Below, piece after piece: positions 817 to 49,327 of a DNA stretch of 64,000 nucleotides. The notes beneath the pieces are model-generated. The model was not told the DNA's origin. It ran no database searches and saw only the letters and a program-made list of their open reading frames with translations. A program made the position numbers and the translations under genes. Source of the stretch: a bacterium (GTDB taxonomy: Bacteria; Patescibacteriota; Minisyncoccia; Phycocordibacterales; UBA9973); assembly GCA_037130655.1 (NCBI GenBank), contig JBAXSP010000002.1, forward strand, positions 77,125-141,124. The letters run 5' to 3'. Position 1 is the first letter of the stretch. Each line of letters begins with the position of its first letter.

Positions 817-915
817 GTTCCTTACAGGAACTGTACACCTTTTGGATATATTTCTTCGTAAAACTCGAAATCTATCTCAAAAGGTCTTGCGCTTGTGTTG
901 CGACACAAGCTCACC
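817..915 (+). repeat. family-1 structured repeat, copy A (SL1 with TTACA loop, conserved imperfect hairpin core, variable 3' hairpin)
   Basis: SL1 gttccTTACAggaac, core tgtacaccttttggatatatttcttcg...ctcgaaatctatctcaaaagg, 3' hairpin gcttgtgttgcgacacaagc. Homologous to the copies at 24546, 35914, 37535, 41971, 45067 and 49212. Confidence 0.8.
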
Positions 916-985
916 TTTGTCGATAATGACATGCTTTTCTACTTCAGTTAGTTCGTTTAGTTGCATAATGTTGCTCTCGTACAAA

Positions 986-1378
986 TTATTTAGAAAATCC
1001 AATCAAAAGCACATTACTCAAAGCCATCAGCAACATCAAAATTGCGGGCACACTTCGGACAATCGGATCTTTGACTTTGCTATGCATGGCAATAGCTCCG
1101 ATCATCAACAACACCAACAAAGCTGAAGCTGGATAGACGAGTATCGGTATCCAAAAACCAACGATCATTGCTGTAGCGATTAGTATTTTTGCAGCACCAA
1201 CCATGTACATGAACCACACTGGCAAACCGTAGGCCAAAAATTCAGCTTGCATACTCCCTGCACTTGCACCTCGGTACTTGGTAGGTTTGTTGAAACGTAC
1301 GAGCCAGACATTGACGAGACCGAGCGCGATTACTACTTGAAAAATAGAGACGATGTATAGTTGTATAGTTTGTGACAT
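986..1378 (-). CDS. DoxX family membrane protein
   Basis: 130 aa with 4 TM segments and a DoxX-like hydrophobic pattern. Confidence 0.6.
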   Translation of the reverse strand: MSQTIQLYIVSIFQVVIALGLVNVWLVRFNKPTKYRGASAGSMQAEFLAYGLPVWFMYMVGAAKILIATAMIVGFWIPILVYPASALLVLLMIGAIAMHSKVKDPIVRSVPAILMLLMALSNVLLIGFSK

Positions 1379-1459
1379 ATAAAATAAGTCTTAAAAAAAT
1401 AATATGTATATTGTATCACACAGCACAAAGCCCGAGTGTACCCTCGGGCTTCAGCACTC

Positions 1460-1711
1460 TTATTTCTTCTTCCACCGTGGAGCGAAACGAATCATCCATG
1501 TGTAGAATTTTGCGAGCAGATACGGCGTACCGTGTTTGCGTATTGATTCATAACACACCTTTTGAAATTCTTTCAAATCAGTACCTTCATAACACAATTT
1601 GCCGTCCTTATAACAAAGACTGCAATAGATATCACTTTCTCGCACCCCAGTATCTTTACTAAACGGCATCAGACAACTCTGACACGCATTACATTTTTTG
1701 TTTTGTTCCAT
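1460..1711 (-). CDS. small zinc-ribbon domain protein
   Basis: CxxC...CxxC pairs (CNACQSC, CSLCYKDGKLC), 83 aa. Confidence 0.45.
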   Translation of the reverse strand: MEQNKKCNACQSCLMPFSKDTGVRESDIYCSLCYKDGKLCYEGTDLKEFQKVCYESIRKHGTPYLLAKFYTWMIRFAPRWKKK

Positions 1712-1776
1712 ATACGTTTATTTTACTACTTTTTGAAATACGGACAAATCCTCGTACGTCTTGATAATTTAGAAAT

Positions 1777-2700
1777 TTAAACTTTATTTTTTATAATATT
1801 TGAGGTAGATTCTGCTGTTTTTTCAACAATTCTTATTGCTTCTTTTACAGGTAAATCGGCACCTTGATCTGCAACATTTCTAGTAAATAAAGTATCAGCT
1901 ACTATCTGAGTAATAATTCCACGTTCGTGCTCGTTAGTTTCTGCATTATTTAAAACACCAAGATATGATTTTGCTACAACCTCTCTATTTTTATATTCCA
2001 TGTAGAGTTTTTTATAGTATGAATATTGAGCAACTATAAAATATAAAACAGTAAATCCAACCAGGTCTAAAGCTAGCATAGAGAGCATTTCTTGATATGT
2101 TAAATGAAATATAATCTTTGATAGCACAACAAAAATATCGTAAACAATTATTATTAAAAAAGCATATTTAGTTAGTTTAAGCCAGAAATCACGATCTTGT
2201 TTTAATCCATTTTTTCTCGCATCATCTTCTTTTGTTTTCAGTTCACCGTCTGCCATATTTGTATATGCTTCTGCTAATTTTTCCAGTGCTGATTCATTAA
2301 ATTTAAATATTCTAGTATCATAATCAGTCATCTTTTTTTCATAATCTACTAAGCGATTATTTATTGTATCAATAGAGGATTGCTTAGTTGGTAATTCAGT
2401 ATTTAAAATTTGAGAAATTTCATTTTGTTTTGAAATTAAATCATTCTGTATATTATTTATTATACCTTGATGCGTATTTAGCTTGTTTTCATGGTCATTA
2501 ATTTGATTTGAATTACTTTGCAATCTTTGTTCATGACCATTAAATTGAGTTTGTGTTTGATTTTGATTTGTGTTTATTTGAGATTCTAGCTGATCTATAT
2601 TTTGATAGACTTCTGCGTCCACATCTGCAATCCAAGAATTTACCCCTCCTTGATTTCTTGTATTCCCATTATGTTGATTAAATTGATTTCTTATTGACAT
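1777..2700 (-). CDS. hypothetical coiled-coil membrane protein (Q/N-rich N-terminus, 2 central TM)
   Basis: Long ORF with an N-terminal Q/N-rich heptad region and two hydrophobic helices (FLIIIVYDIFVVL, FTVLYFIVAQY). No recognisable catalytic motif. Divergent from the LexA-MTase gene. Confidence 0.5.
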   Translation of the reverse strand: MSIRNQFNQHNGNTRNQGGVNSWIADVDAEVYQNIDQLESQINTNQNQTQTQFNGHEQRLQSNSNQINDHENKLNTHQGIINNIQNDLISKQNEISQILNTELPTKQSSIDTINNRLVDYEKKMTDYDTRIFKFNESALEKLAEAYTNMADGELKTKEDDARKNGLKQDRDFWLKLTKYAFLIIIVYDIFVVLSKIIFHLTYQEMLSMLALDLVGFTVLYFIVAQYSYYKKLYMEYKNREVVAKSYLGVLNNAETNEHERGIITQIVADTLFTRNVADQGADLPVKEAIRIVEKTAESTSNIIKNKV

Positions 2701-2802
2701 GCATTTTCTATAATTAAATTTGTAATTGTGGATAACTGCTTAGACTTTCGGTTTTTGTTCGGTTATAATTAAATTGTAGCAAAATATATTTTATATAGCA
2801 AT

Positions 2803-48790: not shown

Positions 48791-48835
48791 TTGCTGGTTT
48801 TTCACTGGTAGTTTATAGTTAAGAAAATTATATAA

Positions 48836-48907
48836 GACCTAGTGGCCAAGTGGTAAGGCGTTCCTCTGCAAAAGGAATATGCGGCAGTTCGATTCTGCCC
48901 TAGGTCT
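48836..48907 (+). tRNA. tRNA-Cys (GCA)
   Basis: Acceptor GACCTAG/CTAGGTC, anticodon stem TTCCT/AGGAA with loop CTGCAAA, T-loop TTCGATT. Confidence 0.8.
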
Positions 48908-48947
48908 CAGAAAAAACCAATCAGAATGGTTTTTTCTGAGACCTAGG
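48898..48947. repeat. 50-nt perfect inverted repeat enclosing the tRNA-Cys 3' end
   Basis: cctaggtctcagaaaaaacca / tggttttttctgagacctagg. Confidence 0.85.
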
Positions 48948-49078
48948 AACAAGTGAACTGCTTCACTTGTGTGCAGAATCGAAAGACGGAGGCATAATTT
49001 TTTCACCAGAAAAAAATAGCCGAGTCGGGGTCGAGAGATTTTTCTGAAGAAAAATACTCGTGACCGATTCTGCCCTAC
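48908..49078 (-). repeat. family-2 structured repeat, copy 2 (antisense, 3' of tRNA-Cys, tail mimics tRNA-Cys)
   Basis: Minus-strand reading: gggcagaatcggtcacgagtatttttcttcagaaaaat...ctatttttttctggtgaaaaaattatgcc...ctttcgattctgc, hairpin acaagtgaagcagttcacttgt, then tcctaggtctcag. Confidence 0.75.
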
Positions 49079-49087
49079 TTAATATTT

Positions 49088-49170
49088 GCCCGAGTGATGG
49101 AATGGTAGACATAGGGGACTTAAAATCCCCAGGTGGCAACACCGTGTGGGTTCGAGTCCCACCTCGGGCA
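49088..49170 (+). tRNA. tRNA-Leu (UAA)
   Basis: Acceptor GCCCGAG/CTCGGGC, anticodon loop CTTAAAA, long variable arm, T-loop TTCGAGT. Confidence 0.8.
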
Positions 49171-49211
49171 CAAAGAAATAATCTCTAGAGATTATTTCTT
49201 TGTGCCCGAGG
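49162..49211. repeat. 50-nt perfect inverted repeat enclosing the tRNA-Leu(UAA) 3' end
   Basis: cctcgggcacaaagaaataatctc / gagattatttctttgtgcccgagg. Confidence 0.85.
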
Positions 49212-49327
49212 TCGTAGCTTTTGTATAACAAAAGCGTAACGAGGACTCGAAGCCCGATTGAGATTTTTTACAAGCGAAGCAAAGTAAAAAATCCAATTGG
49301 GGTACTGGTCCTGTAAGGACCGAGTCC
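49212..49327 (-). repeat. family-1 structured repeat, divergent copy G (antisense, 3' of tRNA-Leu-UAA)
   Basis: Minus-strand reading: ggtccTTACAggacc, agtacccc, aattggatttttt...aaaaaatctcaatcgggcttcgagtcctcg, hairpin ttacgcttttgttatacaaaagctacga, then cctcgggcac (a tRNA-Leu 3' mimic). Confidence 0.65.

Follow-up and report, generated by a model that had tools for sequence, protein, structure and literature searches.

An undescribed family of three-hairpin elements at gene ends in Patescibacteria behaves like mobile DNA

Introduction

Patescibacteria have tiny, streamlined genomes that are thought to be poor in mobile elements. Interspersed palindromic repeats such as REP/BIME, ERIC, BOX, Correia and the Rickettsia palindromic elements are small, gene-less, hairpin-forming sequences that occur in many copies after or between genes; they vary between strains, and the Rickettsia palindromic elements also insert into genes. 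At tRNA genes, repeats that begin in the T-loop, insertion into the anticodon loop, restoration of the gene end and tandem accretion are hallmarks of tyrosine-integrase islands. Group I introns are present in tRNA genes of Patescibacteria (PMC13011429).

The element family described here, found in seven copies in a 64-kb stretch of Patescibacteria DNA (the whole of which is called the window), shares all of the above traits with the palindromic repeats, strain variability and insertion into genes included. Like the tyrosine-integrase islands and their cis-mobilisable remnants, it breaks T- and anticodon loops, is flanked by a repeat of the tRNA 3' end, reconstitutes the gene and accretes in tandem. 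With the group I introns it has in common the phylum, an insertion in tRNA-Ile at anticodon-loop position 35/36 and a hairpin (hairpin 1) that pairs the upstream flank with an internal segment, as the intron P1/internal guide sequence does (PMC13011429).

Results

Detection and fold

All seven copies reported in the first-pass annotation were recovered in the 64-kb window with offsets of only 1-3 nt, and the family proved to be real, non-random and present at high density. The 16-mer CCTTTTGGATATATTT occurred five times exactly in the window and, at up to three mismatches, ten times as compared to 1.8 expected from shuffles. A covariance model built from 89 copies, five of which were window copies, found exactly the seven loci (41-87 bits), including c4 (66.8 bits) and c2 (41.1 bits) even though both had been left out of the model. 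Apart from weaker reverse-strand echoes, which stem from the palindromic core, the next-best match in the window reached 10-10.5 bits. DNA folding recovered the three-hairpin fold in each copy (z -3.9 to -8.6). Within the window the unconstrained positions (centre of the core loop, stems) differed in all copies and the motif was identical.

Four of the seven copies (c2, c4, c5 and c7) are convergent on tRNA genes (Gln, Leu-caa, Tyr and Leu-taa, respectively), a context missed in the earlier annotation, while c1, c3 and c6 face the 3' end of protein genes. All eight tRNA calls in the window were true tRNAs according to ARAGORN and RF00005, and none of them overlapped an element. The element is not a tRNA or tRNA-like gene itself: there is no cloverleaf, and tRNA-like parts of the tRNA-linked copies are limited to a T-loop motif and a copy of the acceptor strand.

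Cassette architecture and stem covariation

The conserved cassette of ~70 nt consists of hairpin 1, whose stem closes an invariant TTACA loop as had been noted before, followed by GTAC and a 17-bp imperfect core hairpin with a fixed bulge and fixed mismatches. In subfamily 1 the core arms are CCTTTTGG/CTCAAAAGG. The two copies previously singled out as divergent, c5 and c7, constitute subfamily 2 (CCAATTGG...CTCAATCGGG), in which both arms change coordinately relative to subfamily 1. A hairpin is indeed found at the 3' side, where a variable 3' hairpin had been described, but the 3' part is of two kinds: type B (c1, c3 and c6) reads GGTCTTGCG-hairpin-CTCACC, and type A (c2, c4, c5 and c7) mimics a tRNA T-loop and acceptor. 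The two ends of the element therefore differ, with the TTACA hairpin on one side and either the GGTCTTGCG-hairpin-CTCACC module or the T-loop mimic on the other.

The stems were paired in 93% of cases vs 75% in shuffles and carried 290 double changes vs 95. Coordinated changes, which the first-pass annotation had taken as structural selection on three stems, were thus confirmed, but the stem covariation is almost exclusively Watson-Crick and without the signature of RNA-level selection: G:T pairs filled 7 of 1952 stem cells, A.C and other mismatches 67 each, mostly confined to a few fixed positions, and hairpin 3 had no G:T among its 686 pairs. At c3/topA and at six rplK loci, hairpin 1 has the duplicated target as its outer arm and the inverted copy of that target as its inner arm, an origin readable only at loci with an empty site or native gene end, so that part of the apparent compensation is built in at insertion.

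Copies linked to protein genes

The three type B copies and associated features are as follows.

816..915, + strand: c1, type B (82.7 bits; folding z -7.5)
817-831, + strand: hairpin 1 of c1 with TTACA loop, GTAC next
838-884, + strand: core hairpin of c1
885-915, + strand: 3' module of c1, TCTTGCG-hairpin-CTCACC
916..966, - strand: displaced N-terminal msrB stub (MQLNELTEVEKHVIIDK), running into the element's GGTGAG (915-910)
35915..36016, - strand: c3, type B (77 bits), overlapping the topA stop codon
35996-36016, - strand: hairpin 1 of c3
35891..35908, + strand: duplicated topA target, first copy (GGTTTTCAGAAAAAGAAG)
36008..36029, + strand: duplicated topA target, second copy (GTTTTTCAGAAGAAAAAGAAAG)
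45065..45163, + strand: c6, type B (81.1 bits)

The intact msrB gene (418-813, probable start at 789) lies on the opposite side of c1 from the stub. In related locus L121 msrB is uninterrupted and the element absent, while L118 has the same insertion as the window; in both the window and L118 an insert of 205-225 nt follows GGTGAG together with a replacement N-terminal coding segment, and the duplicated segment of ~75 nt has diverged (~65% identity). At topA, the GGTGAG of c3 (35915-35920, + strand) supplies the last codons of the gene, whose stop codon (35924-35926) is inside hairpin 3. The first 9 nt of the second target copy form the outer arm of hairpin 1, and none of 200 shuffles scored as high as the target repeat. 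This site is empty in L242 and in L243, where it reads GGTTTTCAGAAAAAAAGAAAGACTAG; the window has a target duplication of 17-20 nt and an altered TopA C-terminus. The earlier statement that all copies are intergenic or span gene ends needs correction for c1, which is located within the displaced msrB 5' stub, and needs to be made more precise for c3, which overlaps a stop codon.

Copy c6 lies between the end of an aminotransferase gene (45208-46395, - strand) and the start of clpB (42280-44970, - strand). Copies c1 and c6 are inside probable transcription units, are probably transcribed and could act as RNA. In other genomes the element follows rplK, a location common to Saccharibacteria and Paceibacterota, in the order gene end, element, gene end, family-2 element, gene end; only at rplK loci is hairpin 3 followed 2-4 nt later by CCTTTTG.

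Copies linked to tRNA genes

The four type A copies and associated features are as follows.

24547..24672, + strand: c2, type A (covariance model 41.1 bits)
24547-24616, + strand: cassette of c2
24614-24672, + strand: T-loop mimic (CTTTTCGAATCC), hairpin 3 and copy of the tRNA-Gln acceptor end
24662..24718, unstranded: perfect 27+3+27 palindrome, bidirectional terminator
24709..24780, - strand: tRNA-Gln(ttg), convergent on c2
37535..37669, - strand: c4, type A (66.8 bits; DNA folding)
37658-37669, - strand: decayed remnant of the tRNA-Leu 3' end
37643-37657, - strand: hairpin 1 of c4, core next
37535-37590, - strand: T-loop mimic, hairpin 3 and acceptor copy of c4
37504..37534, unstranded: bidirectional terminator between tRNA-Leu(caa) and c4
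37422..37503, + strand: tRNA-Leu(caa), convergent on c4
41918..41941, unstranded: terminator hairpin just past the displaced tRNA-Tyr 3' end
41951..42087, + strand: c5, type A, subfamily 2 (72.3 bits)
41951-41970, + strand: 20-nt direct repeat of the tRNA-Tyr 3' end
41969-42039, + strand: cassette of c5
42039-42087, + strand: T-loop mimic, hairpin 3 and partial acceptor copy of c5
42096..42129, unstranded: terminator hairpin between c5 and the intact tRNA-Tyr
42132-42215, - strand: tRNA-Tyr(gta), convergent on c5
49203..49329, - strand: c7, type A, subfamily 2 (86.5 bits)
49321-49329, - strand: remnant of the tRNA-Leu 3' end
49307-49321, - strand: hairpin 1 of c7, core next
49203-49252, - strand: T-loop mimic, hairpin 3 and acceptor copy of c7
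49162..49211, unstranded: perfect palindrome of tRNA-Leu(taa) 3' end, spacer and inverted copy
49088..49171, + strand: tRNA-Leu(taa), convergent on c7

Each of these copies is set within an inverted copy of the 3' end of its own tRNA, after which comes a direct repeat. The order at tRNA loci is tRNA, terminator, inverted 3'-end copy with hairpin 3, cassette, direct repeat and old terminator. The outer arms of the palindrome at 24662..24718, for example, are the tRNA-Gln 3' end and its inverted copy, and the 20-nt direct repeat at c5 recurs as the tRNA-Tyr 3' end (42131-42150); the hairpin at 41918..41941 would represent the original terminator of tRNA-Tyr.

Distribution and empty sites across Patescibacteria

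At least 117 loci matched a degenerate cassette pattern. Among the matches listed, all taxonomically named ones were Patescibacteria except for one chance match, and they belonged to Saccharibacteria and Paceibacterota/Parcubacteria lineages. In a survey of the genomic context of 131 copies, 57 type A copies had a convergent tRNA 100-160 nt downstream (18 isoacceptor types) and none a same-strand tRNA. In 33 copies, 15 nt or more of the tRNA 3' end recur in the 5' flank; this repeat ends in the T-loop at ..TCGA(A) in every case and takes in trailer or terminator bases, not CCA. Target duplications measured 8-42 nt, mostly 17-23. Neighbours outside the window were convergent in 30 cases vs 12 on the same strand. 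The 33 tRNA-linked copies showed no positional -10 signal upstream of the direct repeat, and in about one third of them a terminator hairpin was seen there by inspection; tRNA-linked copies often lie between two terminators.

Presence/absence polymorphism among related genomes was found at msrB, topA, tRNA-Leu and tRNA-Tyr, with close relatives having empty sites for c1, c3 and c4 or a different cassette in the same scaffold. The tRNA-Leu(caa) site is empty in L244; in L242 the scaffold is that of the window but holds a cassette from the other subfamily. Empty and filled alleles differ in the 3' third of tRNA-Leu. Among 92 metagenomic tRNA-Tyr loci, 67 were empty and 24 had the T-loop mimic with various fillers, and one locus was a three-unit tandem array. 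Cassettes are exchangeable within a conserved scaffold and form tandem or nested pile-ups, as in the tandem arrays of L106 and L117, the chimeric copy in L042, and tRNA-Ile genes interrupted by as many as three insertions, where the core loop contains an intact tRNA-Ile.

Known families and enzymes

In agreement with the earlier impression that no Rfam family was involved, only tRNAs reached the gathering threshold when the window was scanned with Rfam 15, and no family matched the element. Permissive Rfam scans of c1 and c5 returned only noise on terminator hairpins, and in 18 related loci tRNAs and a single RNase P RNA were the sole matches. Neither the window nor 150 neighbouring ORFs encoded a transposase, integrase, HUH nuclease or linked reverse transcriptase, and the neighbouring ORFs also contained no TnpA/TnpB; no Y1 transposase was present among the window ORFs scanned, and 2.9 million viral contigs gave 0 element matches. 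The window encodes DprA, a mediator of DNA uptake and recombination.

The element departs from several known types. The criteria for group I introns were taken from PMC13011429; there was no Intron_gpI match even at E up to 10, and the tRNA-Ile junctions of L028 and L029 read ..CTGA/CTCC.. and ..CTCAC/TCGTG (slash at the junction). A decaying MITE, which the first-pass annotation would have expected to show random orientation, is contradicted by an orientation tightly tied to the neighbouring gene and by a phylum-wide motif. Terminal inverted repeats are absent and the target duplication is neither short nor fixed in length, although the presence/absence polymorphism is MITE-like. The element, at ~100 nt with three hairpins and without a GTAG-type head, is not a REP/BIME with RAYT, for which a palindrome of 20-40 nt is expected. 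The direct repeat of the tRNA 3' end around the insert and the breakpoint in the T- or anticodon loop resemble att scars, but no integrase gene or cargo is located between the repeats or nearby. The core arms lack the R''/L''-L'/R' boxes of integron attC (RYYYAAC...GTTRRRY), and the copies are dispersed among housekeeping genes. An IS200/IS605-derived PATE does not fit a target duplication and a TTAC within the hairpin-1 loop. None of the three hairpins in the window copies is directly followed by a T-run as in an intrinsic terminator; separate terminators flank the tRNA-linked copies.

Discussion

The element fits neither a simple small-RNA family nor a MITE in decay. It is an undescribed family that behaves like mobile DNA rather than a small-RNA gene family, since it is present or absent among close relatives, is located at gene ends and duplicates them. 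We favor the explanation, with a probability of roughly 0.55, that all seven copies are DNA insertion modules without genes of their own, part of a family spread widely across Patescibacteria and presumably mobilised by a trans-acting enzyme. Insertion is accompanied by direct target duplication (~17-42 nt), the two end hairpins are partly target sequence and its inverted copy, and the struck gene stays intact because a replacement end is provided on the gene side while the old end is pushed past the element.

The cassette would land at the ends of conserved genes, most commonly the tRNA 3' end with a break in the T-loop, other candidate targets being the rplK stop codon, the topA end, the msrB 5' part and, in other genomes, the tRNA-Ile anticodon loop. 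Conserved loops, bulge and strictly Watson-Crick stems may be what a putative trans-acting host enzyme recognises when it handles a folded DNA intermediate, single-stranded or cruciform, and the inverted target copies could be guide-like pairing segments or the product of template switching. Natural transformation might aid the spread between genomes, given that repeats of highly conserved gene sequence lie on either side of the module. The fuller scheme, in which hairpin-guided, Patescibacteria-specific elements home to conserved gene ends, copy the target inverted into their terminal hairpins, duplicate 17-40 nt, keep the gene intact and are moved by an enzyme, of host or episomal origin, that works on folded single-stranded DNA, is put forward tentatively, as odds are somewhat against it in this full form.

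Some observations speak against mobility. Diverged variable positions around an identical motif fit long-term purifying selection or a host function better than recent transposition, and the post-rplK site common to Saccharibacteria and Paceibacterota may reflect ancient vertical inheritance. The target duplications are of variable length, and some have diverged (msrB); to our knowledge, no transposase gives such duplications, and recombination of foreign DNA, whether ordinary or homology-facilitated, could yield them without any element-specific activity.

A structured RNA appears unlikely. The copies would be either a cis-acting 3' UTR or intergenic element similar to transcribed REP/BIME, acting in the reverse-complement orientation and co-directional with the upstream gene, or an sRNA in a tRNA minihelix-like scaffold, with acceptor and T-stem derived from the 3' end of the tRNA itself for processing, stability or a tRNA-related function. 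Motif and fold are strongly conserved phylum-wide while divergence at unconstrained positions is saturated, yet the element is absent in close relatives without visible compensation, its slot can hold unrelated fillers and Rfam has no match. The strict tie of orientation to the neighbour (7/7 window copies face a gene 3' end) and the type A closing stem, which in folding mimics acceptor and T-stem, would suit such an RNA, as would the conserved A.C mismatch of subfamily 2, a G.U on the opposite strand; however, G:U is virtually absent on either strand apart from this one fixed position, and the other mismatches (T.C, A.A and C.C) are favored by no RNA helix. Copies c1 and c6 lie in probable transcription units, and at rplK hairpin 3 with CCTTTTG resembles a weak terminator formed from the last codons of the gene itself. 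Against an RNA stand the lack of a promoter upstream of the tRNA-linked copies and the terminators on both sides of many of them.

It is improbable that the copies are scars or miniature derivatives (attL-attR fusions, CIME-like) of integrase-driven elements that target tRNA T- or anticodon loops and carry a replacement gene end. Direct repeats starting in the T-loop, the tRNA-Ile insertion at position 35/36, restored gene ends, tandem accretion at one site and an old terminator past the displaced end all match this explanation, but neither integrase nor cargo was found in ~130 copies or 150 neighbours, the size is uniform (~100-170 nt) and viral contigs lack the element. Moreover, integrases are site-specific, whereas one cassette occurs at 18 or more tRNA species and at protein genes, and integrase recombination does not make inverted target copies at both junctions. 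A passive hitch-hiker, i.e. an inactive palindromic cassette marking junctions of homology-facilitated illegitimate recombination or template switching of transformed DNA next to conserved genes, is very improbable in spite of the msrB junction at a 6-bp microhomology (GGTGAG) with its diverged, foreign-like replacement segment, the tRNA-Leu 3' third that differs between empty and filled alleles and the DprA gene, as a passive sequence would not keep the TTACA loop, GTAC, bulge and mismatches across phylum classes, nor would the same junction geometry recur in >100 loci.

One family occupies half of the tRNA loci in the 64-kb window and turns up in different classes of the phylum. If mobile, as in the insertion-module explanation, it involves a new insertion chemistry with long variable target duplications, target-derived end hairpins and gene-end restoration, and accounts for features that mislead genome annotation, namely fragments of tRNAs, split pseudogenes of tRNA-Ile and unusual gene ends. 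If the copies are functional RNAs or DNA sites instead, few non-coding elements of the phylum are as strongly conserved. The covariance model and junction rules offer a direct starting point for counting copies genome-wide and for experimental work in the few Saccharibacteria in culture.

Comparison with known systems

Unlike REP/BIME-type repeats, the element has three hairpins with invariant loops and is conserved phylum-wide rather than in one genus. It is asymmetric, without terminal inverted repeats, and its end hairpins include target sequence; its target duplications are long and variable, theirs 2 bp or absent. It also prefers tRNA T-loops and restores the gene end, and no RAYT or transposase partner was seen. 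In contrast to tyrosine-integrase islands, the insert is ~100-170 nt without integrase or cargo, a single cassette serves many tRNAs as well as protein genes, and inverted target copies lie inside the insert. Compared to group I introns (PMC13011429), the element is shorter (~100 nt vs at least 200 nt) and has no RF00028 match, its 5' exon lacks the terminal U and the element the terminal G, it occurs in either orientation and also away from RNA genes, and the interrupted outer tRNA decays as a pseudogene.

The R''/R' core sequences, cassette array and intI that accompany attC are missing. The TTAC motif recalls the IS608 cleavage site, but unlike in IS200/IS605 it is placed in a hairpin loop rather than in the flank, and there is a target duplication, which IS200/IS605 never make. 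As in integron attC and other folded single-stranded sites (IS200/IS605 ends, CTX attP), the element has an imperfect hairpin with a fixed extrahelical base and fixed mismatches. With attC-type sites it further shares a highly variable loop, which at some loci holds a whole tRNA gene, a structure conserved above stem sequence and a location at gene 3' ends.

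Copies and structure of the element

The first-pass annotation had described seven copies of a three-hairpin element (here family 1) that belonged to no recognized Rfam family. Each copy was located in the window and a covariance-model scan returned the same seven.

Family-1 copies in the window, with context type and the gene whose 3' end the element's 3' end faces (seven of seven)
816-915, plus strand: c1, type B, DoxX
24547-24672, plus strand: c2, type A, tRNA-Gln
35915-36016, minus strand: c3, type B, topA
37535-37669, minus strand: c4, type A, tRNA-Leu
41951-42087, plus strand: c5, type A, tRNA-Tyr
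45065-45163, plus strand: c6, type B, aminotransferase gene
49203-49329, minus strand: c7, type A, tRNA-Leu

The 16-mer CCTTTTGGATATATTT matched exactly in five copies and, allowing up to three mismatches, 10 times versus 1.8 expected from shuffles. An alignment (A2) of 89 distinct copies from the window and related genomes was used to build covariance model R1, from which c4 and c2 were left out. Run over the whole window with filters off, R1 returned seven loci with 41-87 bits, c4 and c2 included, and the rest scored at most 10.5 bits except for weaker reverse-strand echoes of the palindromic core. Single-stranded DNA folding recovered the three hairpins copy by copy (z-scores -3.9 to -8.6). 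Rfam gave no match at gathering or permissive thresholds, which rules out a known RNA family and bears out the annotation on this point.

Hairpin 1 consists of a 5-bp stem of variable sequence that closes an invariant TTACA loop, followed by a linker containing GTAC and the core hairpin. The core stem measures about 17 bp; its mismatches and single-base bulge are fixed, and its loop varies. Hairpin 1, linker and core hairpin together form a conserved cassette. Two core subfamilies were distinguished, CCTTTTGG...CTCAAAAGG and CCAATTGG...CTCAATCGGG, and three context types were defined by the sequence 3' of the core. In type B (c1, c3 and c6 in the window) the core is followed by GGTCTTGCG, hairpin 3 (loop about TCCCA) and CTCACC. 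In type A (c2, c4, c5 and c7) the core leads into (G/C)TTCGANTCC, which mimics a tRNA T-loop; next come hairpin 3, a copied acceptor 3' strand and a bidirectional terminator, beyond which a complete tRNA gene lies on the other strand. The cassette's 5' flank reads as the reverse complement of this convergent tRNA's own 3' end.

Type C was represented by seven loci outside the window plus one truncated locus. Here the loop of the core hairpin holds a complete tRNA-Ile(GAT), and the element is inserted at anticodon-loop position 35/36 of a second, outer tRNA-Ile. The outer tRNA is also split in its D-arm by a different element (family 2), carries an additional antisense family-1-like element near the T-arm in locus L029, and is decaying (acceptor mismatch in L028, 3' half gone in L080). 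The split outer tRNA-Ile(GAT) occupies 440-725 in L028, 700-1160 (minus strand) in L029 and 880-1190 in L080, with two or three insertions (D-arm, anticodon loop 35/36, variable/T region), and the acceptor stem of the complete inner tRNA is extended; this arrangement was found repeatedly in Saccharibacteria and Paceibacterota. Autonomy through an ORF enclosed by the arms of the core was rejected, as the long "core loops" were artefacts of variant 3' arms and the sole genuine cargo was tRNA-Ile.

Association with gene ends

In a context survey of 131 copies within 917 kb, 57 type A copies had a convergent tRNA 100-160 nt downstream and none of these (0/57) a same-strand tRNA, with 18 isoacceptor types represented. 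The tRNA 3' end was repeated in the 5' flank over 8-42 nt (at least 15 nt in 33 copies), and the end point was always ..TCGA(A), in the T-loop. Because this repeat contains trailer/terminator bases and lacks CCA, it was copied from DNA (or the primary transcript) and not from mature tRNA. Among non-A copies outside the window the downstream neighbour was convergent in 30 and same-strand in 12 by crude ORF calls. At six loci from Saccharibacteria and Paceibacterota the element lies at the rplK stop codon.

A scaffold of the tRNA-linked type also follows tRNA-Cys (48836-48908, plus strand) at 48909-49087. It comprises a palindromic terminator with the tRNA 3' end, an inverted acceptor copy, a hairpin and an inverted T-loop (48939-48983), with a T-loop and acceptor direct repeat at 49065-49077; the filler is a family-2 element (..GGTCGAGAG-hairpin-..GTGAC). 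Counting this one, such modules occur at five of the eight tRNA genes of the window. On metagenome contigs L131 (3080-3150) and L238, two copies of the tRNA-Tyr 3' end, one per strand, flank a common terminator at a distance of about 30 nt from each other. One belongs to a complete tRNA-Tyr; the other reads AACCTGC for AACCAAC and runs on into a long insert. These loci add a further variant of the architecture with duplicated tRNA ends.

Empty, filled and rearranged alleles

On sequence grounds we read the copies as insertions and infer the direction (gain versus loss) of each polymorphism. At msrB, related locus L121 (MsrB 92% identical) has no element and a DoxX-msrB gap of 8 nt. In the window and L118 (95%), the 5' part of the coding sequence is longer by an insert of 205-225 nt, which follows immediately on GGTGAG, the Gly-Glu codons of PFTGEY. 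This insert consists of the element and a diverged segment that re-encodes the N-terminus, so that the gene remains whole, and the original N-terminal codons persist upstream as a stub. At topA, c3 is absent from L243 and L242; relative to L243, the window has a duplicated GTTTTCAGAAAAAGAA (17-20 nt) on the two sides of the element, and its TopA ends in ..SEKEAENGEK where that of L243 ends in ..SEKKKD.

At tRNA-Leu(caa), miaA begins 4 nt after the tRNA in L244 (ParB 97%), with no element. In L242 (ParB 90%) the T-loop mimic, hairpin 3, acceptor copy and terminator are the same as in the window, and hairpin 1 and core belong to the other subfamily, amounting to a cassette swap within a conserved scaffold. 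Between c4 and miaA the window also contains a 130-aa ORF without a Pfam match (37732-38124, minus strand); missing from L242 and L244, it marks a second indel at this locus.

The tRNA-Tyr slot was compared across at least 92 distinct metagenomic loci sharing a 22-nt 3' end. Of the 92 loci listed, 67 showed no more than a terminator. A T-loop mimic lay 50-100 nt past the tRNA in 24, the direct repeat was present in 13, and the filler resembled family 1 (hairpin 1 and GTAC) in about six; others held unrelated fillers in this slot, and one was a three-unit tandem array. Tandem arrays were also present in L106 and L117. The second copy in L042 has kept a Ser-specific 3' module beside the 3' end of another tRNA, by now defunct. 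At rplK in L063 and L103, a family-1 element and then a family-2 element are set between three copies of the gene end, which indicates serial insertions with a target duplication at each.

In two metagenome contigs (L133 and L124) hairpin 1 is separated from the tRNA-derived flank by a further mini-insert of 14-20 nt with GAGTAC (CCATGAGTACATTTTTCGAA). TTCGAA is duplicated by this mini-insert, a sign that still smaller nested insertions may occur at T-loop-like sequences.

Covariation and transcription

The covarying stems had been taken as an argument for selection on RNA or single-stranded DNA structure. The covariation held, with 290 double-change cells in A2 versus 95 expected, and 93.1% of the structure was paired as compared with 74.9% in column shuffles and 28-56% with partners slid. 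The RNA side was not supported, the pairs being almost all Watson-Crick: only 7 of 1952 cells in A2 were G:T. The three variable pairs of hairpin 1 included no G:T (0/267) with all four Watson-Crick types present, and hairpin 3 had no G:T (0/686) and only five A.C in 81 copies. Remaining mismatches were mostly at a few fixed positions, namely A.C at 26:82 (subfamily 2) and T.C at 33:73 and 35:71.

Independent knowledge of the target exists for c3 and the six rplK loci, and in these the duplicated target supplies the outer arm of hairpin 1 and its inverted copy the inner arm. Hairpin 3 of the rplK loci consists of the last rplK codons and their inverted copy, and at tRNA loci the outer arm of hairpin 1 starts with GA of the T-loop. 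Since arms are built from the target and its inverted copy, part of the "compensation" arises at insertion. The rest of the stem pairing is kept at a level where G:T gives no advantage. Together, these two points indicate that the selected structure is DNA and not RNA. An imbalance of G:U against A:C as a guide to the transcribed strand was absent beyond the fixed 26:82 A.C (13 versus 7), and on inspection an H-type pseudoknot between the TTACA loop and a downstream TGTA was sterically implausible with its connecting loop of 1 nt.

The element may act in RNA form. Type B copies c1 and c6 sit between co-directional genes and are, to judge from the sequence, probably transcribed in reverse-complement orientation within longer mRNAs. 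Upstream of the direct repeat, about a third of 33 tRNA-linked flanks showed a bidirectional terminator hairpin by reading (41918-41941 in the window), read as the tRNA's presumed original terminator left with the displaced 3' end, and a second terminator lies between element and intact tRNA. With terminators on both sides, these tRNA-linked copies lie in a closed pocket. An independent small-RNA gene with its own promoter was rejected, since, in the reader's orientation, the region preceding the direct repeat gave no positional -10 signal across 33 tRNA-linked copies and, on inspection, the core had no sigma-70 promoter of acceptable spacing.

Enzyme search and rejected identities

Pfam scans of 50 window ORFs returned housekeeping genes, a restriction-modification system, DprA and one reverse transcriptase of the UG19 "DRT" defence class (22388-24481, minus strand; PADLOC E = 3.5e-167), which starts about 65 nt beyond c2. 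No homologue of this enzyme was present in about 240 related loci, so its adjacency to c2 looks coincidental. The same absence of relatives, together with repeats that carry trailer but no CCA, led us to reject retroelement or SINE-like copying by a UG19-type reverse transcriptase. Complementarity to mature tRNA resembling a primer-binding site was rejected as well, TGG preceding the repeat only in L003 and L042. Among 150 ORFs adjoining elements in other genomes, no integrase, transposase, HUH nuclease or reverse transcriptase was found; recurrent families were only L11 (6), CCA-adding enzyme/poly(A) polymerase (3) and other housekeeping proteins. The CCA-adding adjacency may be due to chance, yet it deserves note given that the element is organized around the 3' ends of tRNAs.

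The window also encodes a 525-aa protein (2803-4945 region) in which a C-5 cytosine DNA methyltransferase is joined to LexA DNA-binding and S24 peptidase domains. A restriction endonuclease gene of the Bsp6I type (4382-4945, minus strand) adjoins it; such a LexA-methylase fusion in a restriction-modification pair is unusual. A four-ORF cluster with type IV secretion pilin (T4SS_pilin/TrbC) domains lies at 51897-54851 (minus strand).

Among other identities, the loop CTTACAG of hairpin 1 resembles a Val-UAC anticodon loop, but a tRNA with intron or suppressor-like tRNA received no ARAGORN or RF00005 call, the C:G closing pair leaves a 5-nt loop and a D-arm is absent. A bulge-helix-bulge (archaeal-type) intron was rejected because no motif could be drawn at the tRNA-Ile junctions on inspection and the outer tRNA is decaying. 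No published description of the element was found in the literature; the nearest paper treats group I introns in Patescibacteria tRNA genes (PMC13011429). That paper and the 35/36 position prompted consideration of a group I intron, which is opposed by size, splice-site rules and the lack of a model match; the element is not a group I intron, and the published intron is a different entity.

Taxonomic range

A degenerate pattern covering both subfamilies, scanned over one genome per prokaryotic species, matched at least 117 loci. Among the matches listed, all taxonomically named records were Patescibacteria (Saccharibacteria, Paceibacterota/Parcubacteria, Zambryski-, Kaiser-, Lloyd- and Nomurabacteria, Minisyncoccia), bar one chance match in Prochlorococcus. 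The window has the look of a Saccharibacteria-type chromosome. Its closest neighbour was a Saccharibacteria MAG (GCA_964444515.1), and its MsrB and ParB are 100% identical to proteins of an NCBI MAG contig. The pattern had no match in 2.9 million viral contigs, and a phage attP was rejected on this basis.

Proposed mechanism and comparison with known systems

Insertion breaks at gene ends fall in loop-forming or palindromic sequence (T-loop TTCGAA, anticodon loop, stop-codon hairpins). The hallmarks of insertion were direct target duplications that vary in length, short inverted target copies at either end of the element, an intact gene, exchangeable cassettes, tandem or nested accretion, and invariant loops and bulges. 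Insertion would proceed through a folded single-stranded or cruciform DNA intermediate, recognized by a trans-acting protein via the TTACA loop, GTAC and the bulged core, and the target-complementary segments might serve as guides or arise by template switching in repair synthesis. Each module is flanked by repeats of a highly conserved gene segment, through which ordinary recombination could also excise it, amplify it and, once DNA has been taken up, carry it into naive genomes; such transfer would account for distant lineages having elements at the same gene ends. Within the window, unconstrained positions were saturated with differences and the motif was intact. This pattern speaks against a purely selfish, recently active element and fits either selection acting copy by copy or cut-and-paste lineages whose dead copies are quickly lost.

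In its behaviour the element is closest to REP/BIME, ERIC, Correia and Rickettsia palindromic elements and MITEs, as well as to miniature tRNA-targeting integrative elements, but it differs from these in lacking terminal inverted repeats, a fixed short target duplication and cargo, and no RAYT, transposase or integrase was found among the window and neighbouring ORFs scanned. It shares imperfect hairpins, extrahelical bases and a TTAC motif with integron attC sites and IS200/IS605 ends; unlike them, it lacks their core sequences and makes target duplications. We class the element with the small non-autonomous insertion repeats, and there is a substantial chance that its insertion chemistry is new.
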